Part shown: piece after piece, positions 1-42,056 of the stretch
Layout of the letters: each line of letters starts with the position of its first letter
Numbering within the stretch: the stretch's first letter is position 1
Sequence record: PQ641135
Reading direction: 5' to 3' (one strand)
DNA from: Escherichia phage HHU8
Length of the DNA: 42,059 bases
Position numbers and translations under genes: made by a program
The notes under the pieces: model-generated
The model's input: the letters and a program-made list of their open reading frames with translations, nothing else
Told to the model about the DNA's origin: nothing
The model's database searches: none

Positions 1-6
1 TACTCC

Positions 7-2337
7 TTATCCAAGGTACTGCACAGAGTGTAGGCGTGCCCCGTCGGATACGTAGCAGTTCTCAATTGGTGTTGTACCAGCAGGTATAGTCACTGAAGCG
101 GTACCAACCTGCACAGCTATGGATTTATTCTGGTTGAACGTTATAGTGCAGTCGTACTGACCAGCAGTAACACCCGGAGCAATGTTGTACACAGTGCCAC
201 GGTAGTTAACGTCTAACGCGCCACCCAGCGATGCCAGTGTAATTGTAAGCGCAGTAGAATGGTTAATATCTACCAGCGTCAGAAGCGTACCTGCTGAAGA
301 TGCGTTCAACACGCAGCGCAGCACTGCACCAGCACACAACAGTGGGCGGTTACGTACCTGATTTGCTGCTGTCATACCGGGCTGTACAATCTCACGCGGA
401 ATCAAGCCAACACCAGAGTAGCCGAAGTCTGTACCAGCACCACCCATATCTGAAGTAGCCAGAATAGAGATTACCTGAAGACCAGCGTACAGCTGACACA
501 CCGTTGGTATGTACTGCGCGTCATAGTCAATAGGTATGGCTGTGCCTTGGTCTAAGCCGCCACTGAGCTGGGTACTCAGCAGGTTGCCGCTCAGCCCGAC
601 ACAGCACACAGAACCTGTACCCCACTGTGGCCCGTAGACCGCCAGCACCGTATCGTCGGTCGGGTTGTCCAGAATAACCGCGTGGTTCACACCAGTAGCA
701 GATGCCTGACGGCGGCCAGTAAGACCACCCCCGAAGCGTGAGCCACTTACGTAGTAGCTGCGGTTCAGCGAGATGTTGTCGAAGTACGTCGAGTTGGCCA
801 ACCCTGCCTTATCCCACGGCTTGTACAGCACATGCGCACACACAAGCGGGATAGCCAAGTTGCGGCCCATCTGAGCATACATCAGCGTTGATGGGTGCGC
901 ACCGTCCGGCACCTGCGTGTTAGGCGAGATGTAGCGTGCAGTCTTCTCTGCGTAGTAGTAGTTATCCACTAGGTCGCAGTTCATGGCGTGAGCCACCTCG
1001 CGCATAACCTGCACGTAGTCGCGCAGACGCTTGGACTTGGCTTCGTCAATGATTTGGTACGTAGTGATGCATGGGTTAAGGTTTGGCGTCACAAGGATTG
1101 GCACCTTACCGTACTTGCGCACTGTCTCGACGAACGTTACCACGTTGAGGCGGTACTGCTCAATGCTGTTAGCCAGCTGGCTATCGTTAATGCAGTGGTT
1201 GCAGTAAACGATATTAGCAGACGAGCTGGCCATCTTAGCTTCGAATGTAGAGCCTGAGCCATCGGTACCAGCCAACATCTGAGCCATAGTAGTACCTGAG
1301 ATGCCCTTGTTGTTGACGGTGTTAGCCATACCATAAAGGTTGGTCAACGTCAGACTGAGCACAGCTGGCTGGTTGTTTGGGTCTTGCACGCCAACGTTGA
1401 TTGTAGTGGCACCCCACATAGTGGAGTCACCGTGGCAGTCGATTACCACAGGAGTACCAGCAGCCAGTTGACGGGCGTAATAGGACGCTTTGCGGTACGT
1501 CGGATACTTGAGCTTAGCTACGTCAGCTGACACTGCGCTAACTGAGTCTGCGCTAGCAGCGCCGCCAACCAGCGTATAGCCAGTAGGAGCAGCCAATTCT
1601 TCACGCAGCGACACGTCATGCAGGGGTACCCATGCGCCAGCACTGATACCGCCTGTGGTAGCTGGAGAGCTGCCCAGCGGAACCGTCTTAGGCAATGCCC
1701 CGGCCCACTTGTACTGCTGCCCATTAGCCCGATACAGCACTGTGCGGTTAGCTACAGTGATAGTCGTGCCCGCCTCGAAAGTGCCAATCAGCACACACCC
1801 GGCTTCACGGGCGTCGCGGTAATGCAGCTCGTCCACACTGAGGTTGGTCTTAGCCAGCTCTGCCGCTACACCAGCAGCAGAATCAGTGTCTGGCAGCAGC
1901 ACCTGTGGGTTACCTTCGCTGTCGAAGCCCAGATACTTGCCAGCACGCTCAGCCACGCTAGGGATTAGCGCAATCTCTGGGTCGGAGTCCGGCACGCGAA
2001 GGGTGCGGCCACGGGCATAGTCCGTCAGGTCTGAGTATTCTTGGAAGGCATACAGCAGCTGGTCGAAGTCAGCATCCAAGTTCTGTCCGGTAAACGCAGC
2101 GCCCTGTCCAAACCTGTAGCGCAGCAGGACTGATGTCAAGCGGCGAAGCATGATGGAAGTGCCCGCGTCTGGCGCACCAACGAACGTCACAGTTTTGGCT
2201 ACTATGTCAATCGTGTAGCCAGTGGTCACAATCACGTTATTGAGGCGTACCTCGACCGAGCTGGAGTCCAGCTGGTCGAAGGTATACGTGTATGTGGTTG
2301 TGCTACCATCTGCAATATACAGGTTGTAGCTTGTCAT
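7..2337 (-). CDS. tail fiber / tailspike protein: T7 gp17-like N-terminal adaptor plus central SGNH (GDSL-type) hydrolase domain
   Basis: 776-aa ORF; ATG at 2335-2337 preceded by AGGAG; stop TAA at 7-9. The N-terminal ~150 aa resemble podovirus tail-fiber adaptor regions. Residues ~295-500 carry all four SGNH blocks: GDS (HGDSTMWG), G (NKGISGTT), xND (HCINDS), DxxH (DGAHPS). Last gene of the structural module. Confidence 0.8.
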   Translation of the reverse strand: MTSYNLYIADGSTTTYTYTFDQLDSSSVEVRLNNVIVTTGYTIDIVAKTVTFVGAPDAGTSIMLRRLTSVLLRYRFGQGAAFTGQNLDADFDQLLYAFQEYSDLTDYARGRTLRVPDSDPEIALIPSVAERAGKYLGFDSEGNPQVLLPDTDSAAGVAAELAKTNLSVDELHYRDAREAGCVLIGTFEAGTTITVANRTVLYRANGQQYKWAGALPKTVPLGSSPATTGGISAGAWVPLHDVSLREELAAPTGYTLVGGAASADSVSAVSADVAKLKYPTYRKASYYARQLAAGTPVVIDCHGDSTMWGATTINVGVQDPNNQPAVLSLTLTNLYGMANTVNNKGISGTTMAQMLAGTDGSGSTFEAKMASSSANIVYCNHCINDSQLANSIEQYRLNVVTFVETVRKYGKVPILVTPNLNPCITTYQIIDEAKSKRLRDYVQVMREVAHAMNCDLVDNYYYAEKTARYISPNTQVPDGAHPSTLMYAQMGRNLAIPLVCAHVLYKPWDKAGLANSTYFDNISLNRSYYVSGSRFGGGLTGRRQASATGVNHAVILDNPTDDTVLAVYGPQWGTGSVCCVGLSGNLLSTQLSGGLDQGTAIPIDYDAQYIPTVCQLYAGLQVISILATSDMGGAGTDFGYSGVGLIPREIVQPGMTAANQVRNRPLLCAGAVLRCVLNASSAGTLLTLVDINHSTALTITLASLGGALDVNYRGTVYNIAPGVTAGQYDCTITFNQNKSIAVQVGTASVTIPAGTTPIENCYVSDGARLHSVQYLG

Positions 2338-2342
2338 ATAAG

Positions 2343-5300
2343 TTAATCTCCTTTAACTGCTTCGGTAAGGGCGCGTACGCCGGGGACTATCGACAGCAGT
2401 GGTAGAGCCATTAGTGTGTTGCCAGTAGCCTGACGCGCATTGTTAAGAATACCCCCAGCGTCGCCTTGTAAAGCAGAACGGCCAACACCAGCGACGTTGC
2501 CAGCTACACCATACACACGGTCAATGAACAGCAGGCCCGGCGCACCAAAGCTGCGCTGCTGTCCAGTCAGGACACCAGTGAACTCAGAGGCGAAGCCGAT
2601 GGCACCGAGATAGTTCAGCGCTTGGCCAGCCAGCGCACCAATAGGTCGCTTATCATCAAAGCCTTTGCCAGAGATAACATTGTTCGCAGCTGTAGCCATC
2701 ATCGCCAGCGGATACTGGTAAGCCATAAGCGTAGCCATACCACGGGCACCCTCACGGTTCCAAGTACCAACCAGCGTCTTGTTGTGCGTAGCCGCGACGA
2801 ATCGACGGAACGTAAACAGGAACTTACCGAGGGTACTGAACTCAGCAAATGCAGGCAGCTCACCTACGCGAGCGCGAACAATAGCGTCATCCATGGCGTT
2901 AATCATGACGATGCGGGAGCGATTGAACACCCCTTCATCCCAAGCGTCAGGCTTGGTGCCATGGGTACCAACCTGCTTGCGAATGTCAGCCAGCAGTGCG
3001 TCATTGGCACCGTAGGTTTTCATGGCTGCAATAGCCTTGGCATCACCTTCGGCTGCCTTACGCAGCGTCTGCATCACGAGCGCAGCATTGGTTCGAGTCT
3101 GGTGGAAGTGGATGTACTTCTGCATGTTGATGAACATCGTAGCATCACGCAGGTGTTCCATACGCATGACCCACGGAGACTTATCCGCAGAGAACATGTC
3201 GTCATAGTGCTGCATGATTGGGCGCATACGAATATCACTCGCTACAGCCGCAGTCAGCGCTTCCTCGGCATCCAGAGCCAATTGACGACCTTCCTTAGTA
3301 GACACCCTCATTTGCTTAAATAGTGCGCGTGCTTCGGGAATTGTACGCATCATGGCGCGAAATGTATTGACTGCCCCGAAACGTTGCATCATCGTGCCGT
3401 ATTCCACCAACTGCCACAGGCCAGATGCAGCCAGACCAGTAGCCTGAGTCAGCGCAGAGAGCTGGCGCATGAACTCCGGCATTTCCTCACCAACAGGAGC
3501 ACCTTGGTAGTAAGCCATGATGTTGTCGTATTGGTCGAGAGCCTTGCGACGTGCCGTGCTATCCGGGATGGATTTGGCCAGAGCCTCACGAGCGGCGGCG
3601 CGTTCAGCGTCAGTACCCAGCCCAGCCTCGTGCAGAGCCAGTCGCCCGGTAATGCGGCGGTTGTAGCTGTCCATCATGCTGGTGATACTGTCATCGAACA
3701 GGTCGCGCACCTGCAAGTTCGGGCCAAGCGTGTGCATCATGTCGATGTTGATACGGCTCTTGAGCATCGACGGTCGGCCAGCGTCCGAGCCAGACTCACG
3801 AAGGAGTGCGGAAGCACGGGCTTTGGCAGCCTCGTCGAGACCTTTCGAGTTCTCAATGATTTCGAGCAATTCATCACGACCTTCCTTGTTGATAATCATG
3901 CCGGAGTTGTCGATACCATAACCCTTACGACGAGCACGCTCAACCATGGCATGGGCGATTACGTTGGCAGTCGGGCGGTCAGTACCGATACCACGCTGCA
4001 CCGCAGTCGTCATCTGCTTCATGAATGGCTTCTTGCCGAGCAACTGCTCAGCCTGCTCAATCTTGGTCACGTTCATCCGGCGCGGGTAGTAGTACGGGTT
4101 CTTGTCTACAAAGCCCGGTTCCACCATGCCCTTCGCTTCCAGCTCACGGCCCACGGCGCGGGAGTATTCCCCCAGTCGGTCGGCGGCAGCGGCCACGTTA
4201 GCGTTCGCGCCACGGAACTCCTTGTCAATCATACGCTTGTCCAGCTCGAGACGAACAGCAGCTTCGAACTCCTGCTGCGCCCGGCGATATCCCACCGGGT
4301 CACGGAAGCGACGTAAGTTGCTCCAGCCATCAGAGTTCAGTGCGTTACGCAGAGTGTCCTCGTACTGGTTCAACAGCACACCAAAGCGAGCCTGAGTCTC
4401 GCGCTGGATTGCAGCAGCAGAGGTCATGTTAGGGTTCAGTGGGTCGTCCAGCAATCGCCCGGCGAGAGCGCTGGCTTCATCAGAATGTTGGCTGAATGAT
4501 TTGAACAGCGACCATTCTAGGAACGGACGTTTCGGGTTGGTCTGCTCCCCACGGCGAGCAAGGTCGAGACCGCGCTGGGCAGTGGCCCGGATGGATTCAG
4601 GCACTTCATCGACCACAGCAGCACCTCGCGGCCCGGCACCGAGTGACATGGCCAATGGCGAGGTCATGTTGTTCGGGTCAAACTGCGGCGGGTTGTTCGG
4701 GTCAATACCGTTGCGACGCTGCATCTCCGCTGCAAATTCCTCCGGCGACAGGTCGGCCAGCGAGCGCTGTACCGGGGCCGGGCGATAGAATGCAGTGGTG
4801 GCCGCCCCGTGCAGGGCAGCCGCGAAGATGATTTCGTTCTGAGACACAGGGCGTGCTTCGTTACCCACCGCTGTCATAGTGGCAGCAGTTGAAGCTGCAC
4901 CGACAGCGGCGGTTCCGAGGCGACCTAATTTCAGGGCAGTGCCTGCTCCCATCGAGAGCAGGTCGGTGGCGAGGTACAGCGGGTCAGCGAATTGCAGAAC
5001 CGCGTTCATCACCGGGGCAGTGTGAGCCAACTGAGTACGCTCGCGCATCTCTTGGAGCTGCTGCGTACGCCAGTTGAACTCATCCATAGATTTGGATTTA
5101 AACAGGAAAGTTCTATCGTCTTCACCAATCGGGAACTGAACCTGCTGCAACGCCTCGTTGGGCTTGAAGTCAGGGTCAGCCTGAAAGGTAGGCTTGTTGA
5201 AGGCGGCATCAAAGAGCTGAGTGGTGTCCCAGTTCTTCACAGAAGCGCTCAACGCCGTGGCAATTGGAGTGGCTTCCAGTTCCTGCATCTTTTCGAACTG

Positions 5301-5441
5301 CTCGACGGCACCCTGACGAGTGGCATCCTGCAGTGGAGTGCTGAGCGTCTCAGCTTTTACGGGAGCTGGAATCACCAGCGTAGGGGCGTTGGCCCCCTGC
5401 TTGGAAGCCATGAACTTGTCGAGCGATTCTTGTGTAATCAT
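2343..5441 (-). CDS. internal virion (ejectosome) protein, T7 gp16-like
   Basis: 1032-aa ORF directly upstream of the tail fiber; ATG at 5439-5441 overlaps the stop of the preceding gene (ATGA). Position and size fit the largest internal core protein; the C-terminal segment resembles the gp16 C-terminus by eye. Confidence 0.65.
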   Translation of the reverse strand: MITQESLDKFMASKQGANAPTLVIPAPVKAETLSTPLQDATRQGAVEQFEKMQELEATPIATALSASVKNWDTTQLFDAAFNKPTFQADPDFKPNEALQQVQFPIGEDDRTFLFKSKSMDEFNWRTQQLQEMRERTQLAHTAPVMNAVLQFADPLYLATDLLSMGAGTALKLGRLGTAAVGAASTAATMTAVGNEARPVSQNEIIFAAALHGAATTAFYRPAPVQRSLADLSPEEFAAEMQRRNGIDPNNPPQFDPNNMTSPLAMSLGAGPRGAAVVDEVPESIRATAQRGLDLARRGEQTNPKRPFLEWSLFKSFSQHSDEASALAGRLLDDPLNPNMTSAAAIQRETQARFGVLLNQYEDTLRNALNSDGWSNLRRFRDPVGYRRAQQEFEAAVRLELDKRMIDKEFRGANANVAAAADRLGEYSRAVGRELEAKGMVEPGFVDKNPYYYPRRMNVTKIEQAEQLLGKKPFMKQMTTAVQRGIGTDRPTANVIAHAMVERARRKGYGIDNSGMIINKEGRDELLEIIENSKGLDEAAKARASALLRESGSDAGRPSMLKSRINIDMMHTLGPNLQVRDLFDDSITSMMDSYNRRITGRLALHEAGLGTDAERAAAREALAKSIPDSTARRKALDQYDNIMAYYQGAPVGEEMPEFMRQLSALTQATGLAASGLWQLVEYGTMMQRFGAVNTFRAMMRTIPEARALFKQMRVSTKEGRQLALDAEEALTAAVASDIRMRPIMQHYDDMFSADKSPWVMRMEHLRDATMFINMQKYIHFHQTRTNAALVMQTLRKAAEGDAKAIAAMKTYGANDALLADIRKQVGTHGTKPDAWDEGVFNRSRIVMINAMDDAIVRARVGELPAFAEFSTLGKFLFTFRRFVAATHNKTLVGTWNREGARGMATLMAYQYPLAMMATAANNVISGKGFDDKRPIGALAGQALNYLGAIGFASEFTGVLTGQQRSFGAPGLLFIDRVYGVAGNVAGVGRSALQGDAGGILNNARQATGNTLMALPLLSIVPGVRALTEAVKGD

Positions 5442-39991: not shown

Positions 39992-41751
39992 TATTTGATT
40001 CTCCGTCGCGTGCCGCGCACAGGTTTGTGGCTGCGCCACTTCGAGTCGTCGTAACCCATCGGGTTGGCAAGGAACTCTCGTGCAGCAGCAGTCTCACGCT
40101 TGGCGGCTTCTTCATGTTCGTCCTGCTGTAGCACCTCAGCGTGCAGGTACACGGCAGCAGACAGGGTTTCAATGCGGTCGTCGTGGGGGATGGATTGACG
40201 GTCTTGTGTCAGGTTCTGGAGCTGCCAGAACAGACTGAACTCACGACCACCGTTATTCATGCCCCGGCACAGCCGCAGGTCTTCTTCAACAACACACCAA
40301 TGCACAACGACACGGTGGCGCTGCATGATTGGGCCGAGGCGGTTGATGATACGCACCTCTTTCTGACCGGACGAGTACACGCCATCACAGCCAATGGTCA
40401 AGCTCTGACGCTTAACCTCACCTCGGTACATGTTGGTCACGGTGCCGTGGCCCATGTTATCCTCAATGACCAGTCGCTTAACCCCGGTTTCAGCAAGCCA
40501 CTCTACCGCCGCCTTGATGTTTTCCTCCGTCTGACCGCCGTGGTAGACGTGCATACCGATGACGTGGATAAACGGGCCGACAGAAGCGGTGGCAATGATA
40601 ACTGATTCGTCCGACCCACCACCAGCAGGGTCAAGAAACGCCGAGGTATTTTCGAATGGTACATAAGTGTCCGAGAAATCAGCAGCCAAGAATAGCTGAG
40701 CGCGAGCCAGTGGGAAATCCAATGGCAGCTCGGCGGCATGGCGCGGGTGGTTCGACCAATGCAGAACCTCCGGCGCAGACTGCGTAGAGCCGTGGAAGAA
40801 GATTAAGTCTTTGAGATGTAACGTCTGTTTGAGCGCATCCGACAGCGACGTGTCCAGCATGAACTGCAACTGGAAGCCTGCCTGCTGGTAGTCTCGTTCG
40901 TTCTGCAACTGCTTCTCTTCGGAGTAGCGTTGCGGGTCAGTCTGTGCGCCACGGTTCCCAAGGATACCGTACCCAGTACGCAGTTCAGGGTGGCCATCCA
41001 TCTTCTGCTTAATCCACGGGGCCAGACAGCCGCCGTAGCGTTCTTCTTCCTCAACCGTTGGGAAACGACCGGGCCAGATGCGAACGTCGAAGCCACGCTG
41101 CGGGAGCGTGTTGTAGATGGAGTCCTGAGTCTGCGGTGTACCAAGGTACAGAATCTCTGCACCATCATTGGCGATAGCCGCGAACTCTTTGGTCAGAGTG
41201 TTGATACGGGCGCGGTTGGCAGGAGAGCTACCGTTACTGGTAGTCTCCACGTCATCGGCAATCAACAGCGATACGTGGTTCCCCTGCAACTGGCCGAAGA
41301 TACCAACTGCTTTGACAGAGGGCTGTTTGTCAGGAATACGAAATGCGTGGTGTACGTCGAAACCGTCCGTATAGGAGGTACGTGCGCCAGCGCGAGTTTC
41401 AGGGCGCAGCCATTCCAGTCTGTCCCATTGCATAATGGCAGACACGATGGCGTGCGAGAGCGTACCCGCATAGTCGTCAGAACCAGATACCAGCAGCACA
41501 GTGGCGTTAGGCATCTGGATGAACTCATACAGAGCACGGGCAATGCCGATGGTGGACTTAGCCTCACCGCGCTGAGCCATGACGCACTTGTTCTTTAGCG
41601 TCCGGTCGGCCATGTAGCGGCCAATATCGAGCTGCATTTCAGTGAGGTCAAAGCCCAGCCATGCGAAGTAGTCATGCAGGAACAGCGGGAAGTTGTTCTC
41701 GTAGTGGGCGCGAACAATTCCTGCCATCACCATGCGGCGTTGTAAATCCAT
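39991..41751 (-). CDS. terminase large subunit (T7 gp19-like)
   Basis: 586-aa ORF, the same length as T7 gp19; N-terminal region resembles T7-group terminases; follows the small-terminase gene with a TAATG overlap. Confidence 0.85.
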   Translation of the reverse strand: MDLQRRMVMAGIVRAHYENNFPLFLHDYFAWLGFDLTEMQLDIGRYMADRTLKNKCVMAQRGEAKSTIGIARALYEFIQMPNATVLLVSGSDDYAGTLSHAIVSAIMQWDRLEWLRPETRAGARTSYTDGFDVHHAFRIPDKQPSVKAVGIFGQLQGNHVSLLIADDVETTSNGSSPANRARINTLTKEFAAIANDGAEILYLGTPQTQDSIYNTLPQRGFDVRIWPGRFPTVEEEERYGGCLAPWIKQKMDGHPELRTGYGILGNRGAQTDPQRYSEEKQLQNERDYQQAGFQLQFMLDTSLSDALKQTLHLKDLIFFHGSTQSAPEVLHWSNHPRHAAELPLDFPLARAQLFLAADFSDTYVPFENTSAFLDPAGGGSDESVIIATASVGPFIHVIGMHVYHGGQTEENIKAAVEWLAETGVKRLVIEDNMGHGTVTNMYRGEVKRQSLTIGCDGVYSSGQKEVRIINRLGPIMQRHRVVVHWCVVEEDLRLCRGMNNGGREFSLFWQLQNLTQDRQSIPHDDRIETLSAAVYLHAEVLQQDEHEEAAKRETAAAREFLANPMGYDDSKWRSHKPVRGTRRRIK

Positions 41752-42056
41752 TAGTGCATCACCCCGCTATCTTCTGCAATCTTGTCGATTGCTGCTTTCA
41801 AGATTGACTTGCGCTCTGCTTCCGTGCGCTCGCCGTCGAGTTGTGCCTGCAATGCCAGCAGGTCGTCAGCATCACCTTTGTCGGCTGCTATGCCGTTATC
41901 CTTTAGGAACTGTCGAAGCACAGATAACTCAGCAGCAGGCATTGGGGCGATGATGTTGCCATCATCGTCCTTTTTCATGGATGCATGAAGCCGTTCTGTG
42001 AGGTATTCGACCAGCGCCCTATGCAGGGCGTCGAGTTCCTTGTTAGTGCCAGCCAT
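41751..42056 (-). CDS. terminase small subunit (T7 gp18-like)
   Basis: 101-aa ORF with ATG at 42054-42056, charged helical protein directly upstream of the large terminase. Its Shine-Dalgarno (GGAG) lies at window positions 2-5, i.e. across the circular junction. Confidence 0.55.
   Translation of the reverse strand: MAGTNKELDALHRALVEYLTERLHASMKKDDDGNIIAPMPAAELSVLRQFLKDNGIAADKGDADDLLALQAQLDGERTEAERKSILKAAIDKIAEDSGVMH

Follow-up and report, generated by a model that had tools for sequence, protein, structure and literature searches.

The tailspike of Escherichia phage HHU8 carries a complete SGNH/GDSL esterase domain with intact catalytic residues, as judged from sequence and structural modeling. 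Sequence analysis, conservation across the family, the predicted fold and the properties of characterized homologs all support the proposal, made in an earlier sequence-only reading of this DNA, that the protein is an esterase or deacetylase and not a glycosidase or lyase. The DNA analyzed here (record PQ641135, 42,059 nucleotides; hereinafter the window) represents the whole genome, in circularly permuted form, of a phage of the genus Bonnellvirus in the family Autographiviridae. We consider it probable that the tailspike is an active O-acetyl esterase that acts on a surface polysaccharide, most likely the O-antigen, without cleaving the polysaccharide backbone.

The tailspike gene (7..2337, minus strand, as are all its domains and motifs described below) encodes 776 amino acids plus a stop and was delineated from the list of open reading frames and by matches to PHROG tail fiber and tail spike families, with phrog_8011 at 1e-62. 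Amino acids 1 to ~150 (1888..2337) comprise the particle-binding anchor, a T7 tail-fiber N-terminal domain in which the Phage_T7_tail profile (Pfam PF03906) matches residues 3-106 with 34.8 bits (cut-off 25.2). The following neck, amino acids 151-294 (1456..1887), consists of helices and a small beta domain, Tail_spike_N, followed by a helical linker, as delineated by Pfam (PF18668) and by the secondary structure of the AlphaFold model. The Tail_spike_N domain itself spans residues 185-239 (1621-1785; Pfam E 3.6e-16), and sequence matches in PDB connect it to the same domain in B2 gp48, the tailspikes (TSPs) of CBA120 and G7C gp63.1; this domain, lodged between the anchor and the esterase, was absent from the earlier description. 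The SGNH/GDSL esterase domain, amino acids 295-500 (838..1455), is identified by PF13472, PF00657, AlphaFold and Foldseek; coordinate mapping places residue 295 at 1453-1455 and residue 500 at 838-840. The C-terminal region, amino acids 501-776 (10..837), is made up of two beta-sandwich (jelly-roll) domains resembling carbohydrate-binding modules of the CBM6/35/36 type. The sequence-only reading had flanked the enzyme with a T7-type particle-binding N-terminus and a beta-rich C-terminal region, and both stand: the anchor profile scores above its cut-off and the C-terminal region is all-beta in the AlphaFold model.

With respect to genomic context, the tailspike gene is flanked by the gene for an internal virion protein (2343-5441) and, across the ends of the window, by TerS (41751-42056). 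More broadly, the neighboring genes recognized through PHROGs encode internal virion proteins, tail tube proteins, the capsid and portal proteins and, again across the window ends, TerS and TerL. The protein has a Phage_T7_tail domain, and its gene occupies the place of a tailspike gene in this order, next to those for the internal virion protein and TerS; particle attachment of this kind marks esterase tailspikes. The collinear relative megetsur has one tailspike gene, in the same position, and 7..2337 is expected to be the sole tailspike or fiber gene for a genome of this type. Short open reading frames on the plus strand within the gene (988-1257 and 1618-1968) were taken as chance occurrences, the coding region of the tailspike being well supported.

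All four SGNH blocks occur in order within residues 295-500, at the positions originally reported, and the profile matches agree with them. Block I, G303-D304-S305 (1423..1431), comes right after the first beta-strand of the domain in the AlphaFold model and contains the predicted nucleophile, S305; the G, D and S are each invariant in 83 of 83 homologs. Block II is represented by G348 (1294..1296) within the GISGTT motif (residues 345-350), a predicted oxyanion-hole glycine that is present in 80 of the 83. In block III, N384-D385 (1183..1188) of the CIND motif (382-385), the predicted oxyanion-hole asparagine N384 is found in all 83 homologs and D385 in 79; the position that precedes the xND signature is C, G or A among the homologs, and C382 in the tailspike itself. 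Block V, D478-G-A-H481 (895..906) in the DGAHP motif (478-482), supplies the predicted Asp and His of the triad, both of which are invariant (83/83), and aligns with the DGxH of the Moo19 gp82 and 9lna esterase spikes. These counts come from an alignment of 83 of the 117 relatives that were retrieved with residues 270-776 as the query; the best of the 117 is 54% identical, and identity in the alignment extends down to 24%. Outside the canonical blocks, the homologs share a C379-N380-H381 signature just before block III (window 1189-1203, residues 379-383, in a YCNHC context), with C in 81, N in 83 and H in 81 of the 83 sequences; this signature may have a part in shaping the substrate pocket.

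Among 20,000 shuffles of the protein, just 67 (0.3%) contained the blocks in the order GDS..G..ND..DxxH with SGNH-like spacing. For the predicted SGNH domain the profile evidence is much stronger than this motif test: Lipase_GDSL_2 (PF13472) aligns with residues 301-488 over profile positions 1-177 of 178, with an E-value of 5.2e-14 and a score of 53.6 bits (cut-off 32.9); Lipase_GDSL (PF00657) matches at E 1e-8, with 36.0 bits (cut-off 23.6). A search of the tailspike against NCBIfam returned no family match. The protein accordingly displays the features that define the SGNH/GDSL superfamily in sequence, namely the GDS of block I, the oxyanion residues of blocks II and III, the DxxH of block V and profile scores above threshold. 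Inactive, enzyme-derived binding domains are known in phage receptor-binding proteins, and this precedent makes it conceivable that the SGNH domain of the tailspike is a catalytically inactive relic that now serves as a binding or structural module. We regard this as highly improbable, given that the four blocks are intact, that the homologs assayed so far are active, and that the nucleophile, Asp and His are invariant among the 83 homologs even at 24% identity, as would be expected if selection had maintained catalysis.

The predicted structure points in the same direction. The AlphaFold2 model of amino acids 150-776, a monomer built on the homolog alignment, has a mean pLDDT of 91.2 and a pTM of 0.80; strands and helices alternate over residues ~298-493, with pLDDT of 94-99, and are followed by an all-beta region. 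The domain adopts the three-layer alpha/beta/alpha fold with a parallel central sheet that is typical of SGNH enzymes, so that the esterase fold anticipated in the sequence-only reading was indeed obtained with AlphaFold2 and Foldseek. Against solved SGNH enzymes (3RJT, Axe2, TesA and 4RSH), Foldseek gives target-normalized TM scores of 0.70-0.81 for this domain. When amino acids 150-776 are compared with PDB, the top ranks are held by esterase tailspikes, namely G7C gp63.1 (4QNL; E 1e-24), B2 gp48 (9D84; 1e-23) and Moo19 gp82 (9D81; 2e-14), followed by the carbohydrate acetylesterases CEX, Axe2 and Est24, which are acetyl-mannan and acetyl-xylan esterases, and by other SGNH enzymes. Among the predicted viral structures in BFVD, the best match is the tail spike of phage PP99 (E 1e-67, target-normalized TM 0.87), and after it come the SGNH spikes of phages CB3, Q19 (E 1e-17) and Possum.

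The Pfam families concerned are named for GDSL lipases and acylhydrolases, and E. coli TesA/lysophospholipase L1 and aryl esterases also appear in the Foldseek results, at E ~1e-7; one could accordingly picture a lipase, phospholipase or peptidoglycan O-acetylesterase that acts on the envelope during entry instead of a deacetylase of surface polysaccharide. We give this reading hardly any credence. The esterase tailspikes as well as CEX, Axe2 and Est24 all outrank the lipases in Foldseek, the domain is fused to CBM-like beta-sandwiches, and it resides in a distal, receptor-facing virion protein, whereas in this genome type degradation of the envelope falls to the internal virion proteins with lysozyme motifs.

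As for the region beyond the esterase, the models of amino acids 501-776 show two CBM-like beta-sandwiches, and the best structural match of this region is the C-terminus of G7C gp63.1. The tailspike as a whole reproduces the arrangement of solved and characterized esterase tailspikes, in which an SGNH domain is followed by distal beta-sandwiches. We infer that these domains bind polysaccharide, and they possibly contribute to trimer formation. A Pfam search with the C-terminal 285 amino acids gave no match even at E 10, and the positions retained in at least 80% of the homologs are mainly Gly, Leu, Trp and Tyr, along with one Asp, so that few of them are polar. A bifunctional spike, in which the jelly-roll domains house a second, depolymerizing active site of the lyase or glycanase type, appears extremely unlikely: non-catalytic CBM6/35/36 modules and galectins score equally well or higher in comparisons of this region, few polar residues are conserved in it, its best match belongs to G7C gp63.1, an enzyme whose action leaves the polysaccharide backbone intact, and PP99 gp55, which possesses the same region, yielded deacetylated polymer with no depolymerization reported. 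A beta-helix depolymerase tailspike was likewise considered and rejected; neither Pfam nor the models, which consist of SGNH and beta-sandwich domains, revealed a beta-helix or depolymerase family in the tailspike, and homology to the megetsur colanidase ends after ~150 amino acids.

The closest characterized homolog is gp55 of Pectobacterium phage PP99 (Autographiviridae, Gajwadongvirus), which is also the closest phage match to the tailspike in the collection searched; BLASTP aligns the two proteins over 516 amino acids with 41% identity (E 2e-121), and the alignment takes in the C-terminus as well as the four blocks. In recombinant form, PP99 gp55 is trimeric and, as determined by NMR, deacetylates the 6-deoxytalose side chain of the host O-polysaccharide and leaves the backbone and the acetylated mannose unchanged (PMC6989608). 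Both proteins are receptor-binding spikes of podophages of the T7 supergroup, and the SGNH domain and both C-terminal beta-sandwiches are common to the two. Unlike PP99 gp55, which is 550 amino acids long, the tailspike possesses residues 1-272, that is, the T7-type anchor and the Tail_spike_N neck, without a counterpart in the BLASTP alignment; moreover, the PP99 gene lies at the genome end, after the terminase, and the host genus differs. Substrate specificity is not transferable across these distances, because the closest characterized homolog is 41% identical and the closest sequence over residues 270-776 is 54% identical.

Other spikes of this class are more remote. G7C gp63.1, from an E. 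coli phage of the Schitoviridae, is a deacetylase; infection requires its activity, and host mutants that lack O-unit acetylation are resistant (PMC10743462). It differs from the tailspike in showing just 10-15% identity in structural alignments and in joining the virion via a second spike, gp66, within a branched adsorption apparatus (PMC7693777), whereas a T7-type anchor is part of the tailspike itself, and no second spike is encoded by the collinear relatives of HHU8. The spikes of Shigella phages B2 (gp48, 9D84) and Moo19 (gp82, 9D80/9D81) hydrolyze 4-nitrophenyl acetate, and both are dependent on modifications of the O-antigen (PMC11654681). Sequence matches between the tailspike and these two run from Tail_spike_N into the GDS block and, in the case of Moo19 gp82, through block V; B2 and Moo19 are, unlike HHU8, N4-like phages with another mode of virion attachment (B2 gp48 is complexed with gp49), and the sequence similarity of the enzyme domains is low. 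Furthermore, a T7-like N-terminal domain followed by an SGNH hydrolase C-terminal part has been described for the tail spikes of the Pectobacterium Studiervirinae Q19, PP47, PP81, PPWS4, MA6 and MA1A, for which horizontal transfer was invoked (PMC7693777). These share the order of domains with the tailspike, and they differ from it in that they belong to another subfamily and host, are more distant than PP99 gp55, and have an activity that is itself predicted.

The HHU8 genome is collinear with, and 88-96% identical at the DNA level to, those of megetsur, mellemsur, altidsur, the Enterobacter phages SS-2025 and BHUENT7, and others. In megetsur, J8-65 and other relatives, the position of the tailspike gene is held by a gene annotated as 'tailspike colanidase', and DNA similarity to megetsur is lost from window position 41961 to the end and over 1-2499. 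Within this block of ~2.6 kb lie the entire tailspike gene, ~32 codons from the start of TerS and the ~52 final codons of the 1032-amino-acid internal virion protein. Given that the replaced block exceeds the tailspike gene and extends into its neighbors, the recombination breakpoints lie inside those flanking genes. The tailspike shares its genome position and its T7-type anchor family with the Bonnellvirus colanidases (megetsur, J8-65 and the colanic acid-degrading protein of phage NST1). In contrast to this shared position, homology is confined to just the first ~150 amino acids, at ~33-43% identity, and the remainder of the colanidases is a depolymerase without an SGNH domain. The anchor (window 1888-2337) is 33-43% identical to its counterparts, versus 83-92% DNA identity for the tail tube genes in the same phages; apparently, a strongly diverged anchor still fits a conserved tail.

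The annotated colanidase at the same position in the closest genome relatives, for which colanic acid is the receptor polymer, together with the O-acetyl groups that colanic acid bears, raises the question of whether the substrate of this enzyme is a capsule or exopolysaccharide, such as a K-antigen or O-acetylated colanic acid, in place of the O-antigen. SGNH receptor-binding proteins have, moreover, been reported to be widespread in Klebsiella prophages and to be capsule-associated esterases (PMC13123978), and because related SGNH spikes also act on capsules, the O-antigen is named here as just the most likely substrate. A capsular or colanic acid substrate is nonetheless unlikely, in our estimate, since the spikes of PP99, G7C, B2 and Moo19, the nearest characterized homologs by sequence and fold, all act on, or depend on, O-antigen acetylation, and since replacement of the entire gene, anchor included, suggests a change of receptor as opposed to its retention.

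No DNA match to the tailspike gene was found when window positions 1-2700 were searched against phages in distant mode or against complete E. coli genomes, and an exact match to the 776-amino-acid protein is not on record in public assemblies. When the part of the protein from the esterase to the C-terminus served as the query, IMG/VR and the GTDB species genomes yielded only relatives at 37-45% identity, with no clue to the host. Partial copies do occur: 28 short partial proteins, which touch residues 1-580, form one cluster, and the 15 that were compared (P0116 and P0118-P0131) are 96-100% identical to the tailspike. The copies listed reside on contigs of 261-1115 bp in NCBI assemblies labeled Cutibacterium acnes (most of them), Streptococcus suis and Enterococcus faecalis, and this looks like carry-over into, or contamination of, assemblies of unrelated Gram-positive isolates by an identical or near-identical enterobacterial phage.

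A separate observation concerns an E. coli prophage homolog (P0031) that is 50% identical to residues 270-776 and adjoins an Acyl_transf_3 gene on the opposite strand (prophage regions L003 8001-11145 and L004 8001-12206); in L004, a second small gene of the GDSL family lies beside this pair. By sequence, an E. coli prophage pairs a predicted esterase tailspike with a putative polysaccharide O-acetyltransferase. Proteins of the Acyl_transf_3 family commonly acetylate surface polysaccharides, for example the O-antigen, so that this neighbor of P0031 fits a biology of acetylated polysaccharides for the tailspike family.

Taking the tailspike as an O-acetyl esterase, we propose the following mode of action. 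The protein would be a trimer, as are PP99 gp55 and the solved spikes (PMC6989608, PMC11654681), in which a T7-type anchor, the Tail_spike_N neck, the SGNH esterase and two carbohydrate-binding-like beta-sandwiches follow one another. Binding to the polysaccharide on the host surface, most likely an enterobacterial O-antigen, would involve the SGNH domain together with the neighboring CBM-like domains, and on contact O-acetyl groups would be removed and the chain left uncut. In the predicted active site, S305 serves as the nucleophile, G348 and N384 form the oxyanion hole, and H481 and D478 act as the acid-base pair. With recognition coupled to deacetylation, the phage could then attach specifically, reversibly and possibly processively, and its tail would thereby reach the outer membrane, as has been proposed for G7C and PP99.

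Such a mechanism is not new. Structures, activity assays and reviews of esterase tailspikes are already available, and T7-type anchors joined to an SGNH domain have likewise been published for other phages of the Autographiviridae (PMC7693777). The sole new point is that an esterase spike had not been recorded before in Bonnellvirus; in a literature search that combined the genus with esterase or SGNH, the ten top-ranked papers do not mention the genus. A bolder interpretation, which we hold to be improbable, is that HHU8 represents the first recorded wholesale swap in Bonnellvirus of a colanic acid-depolymerizing tailspike for a deacetylating one, perhaps on one and the same kind of polymer. 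If the substrate were indeed the same kind of polymer (colanic acid in O-acetylated form or an exopolysaccharide related to it), near-identical virions would apply cutting in one case and deacetylation in the other to a single receptor, and they would constitute a natural pair for the 'cut or pull' hypothesis of podovirus penetration, parallel to G7C and Alt63.

HHU8 also offers a clear example of modular tailspike exchange in a genome backbone that is otherwise 90% identical. The predicted activity implies that the host range of the phage would depend on O-acetylation of the surface polysaccharide, in which case resistance could arise by loss of an acetyltransferase alone. These predictions could be of use for host prediction and for the design of phage cocktails.
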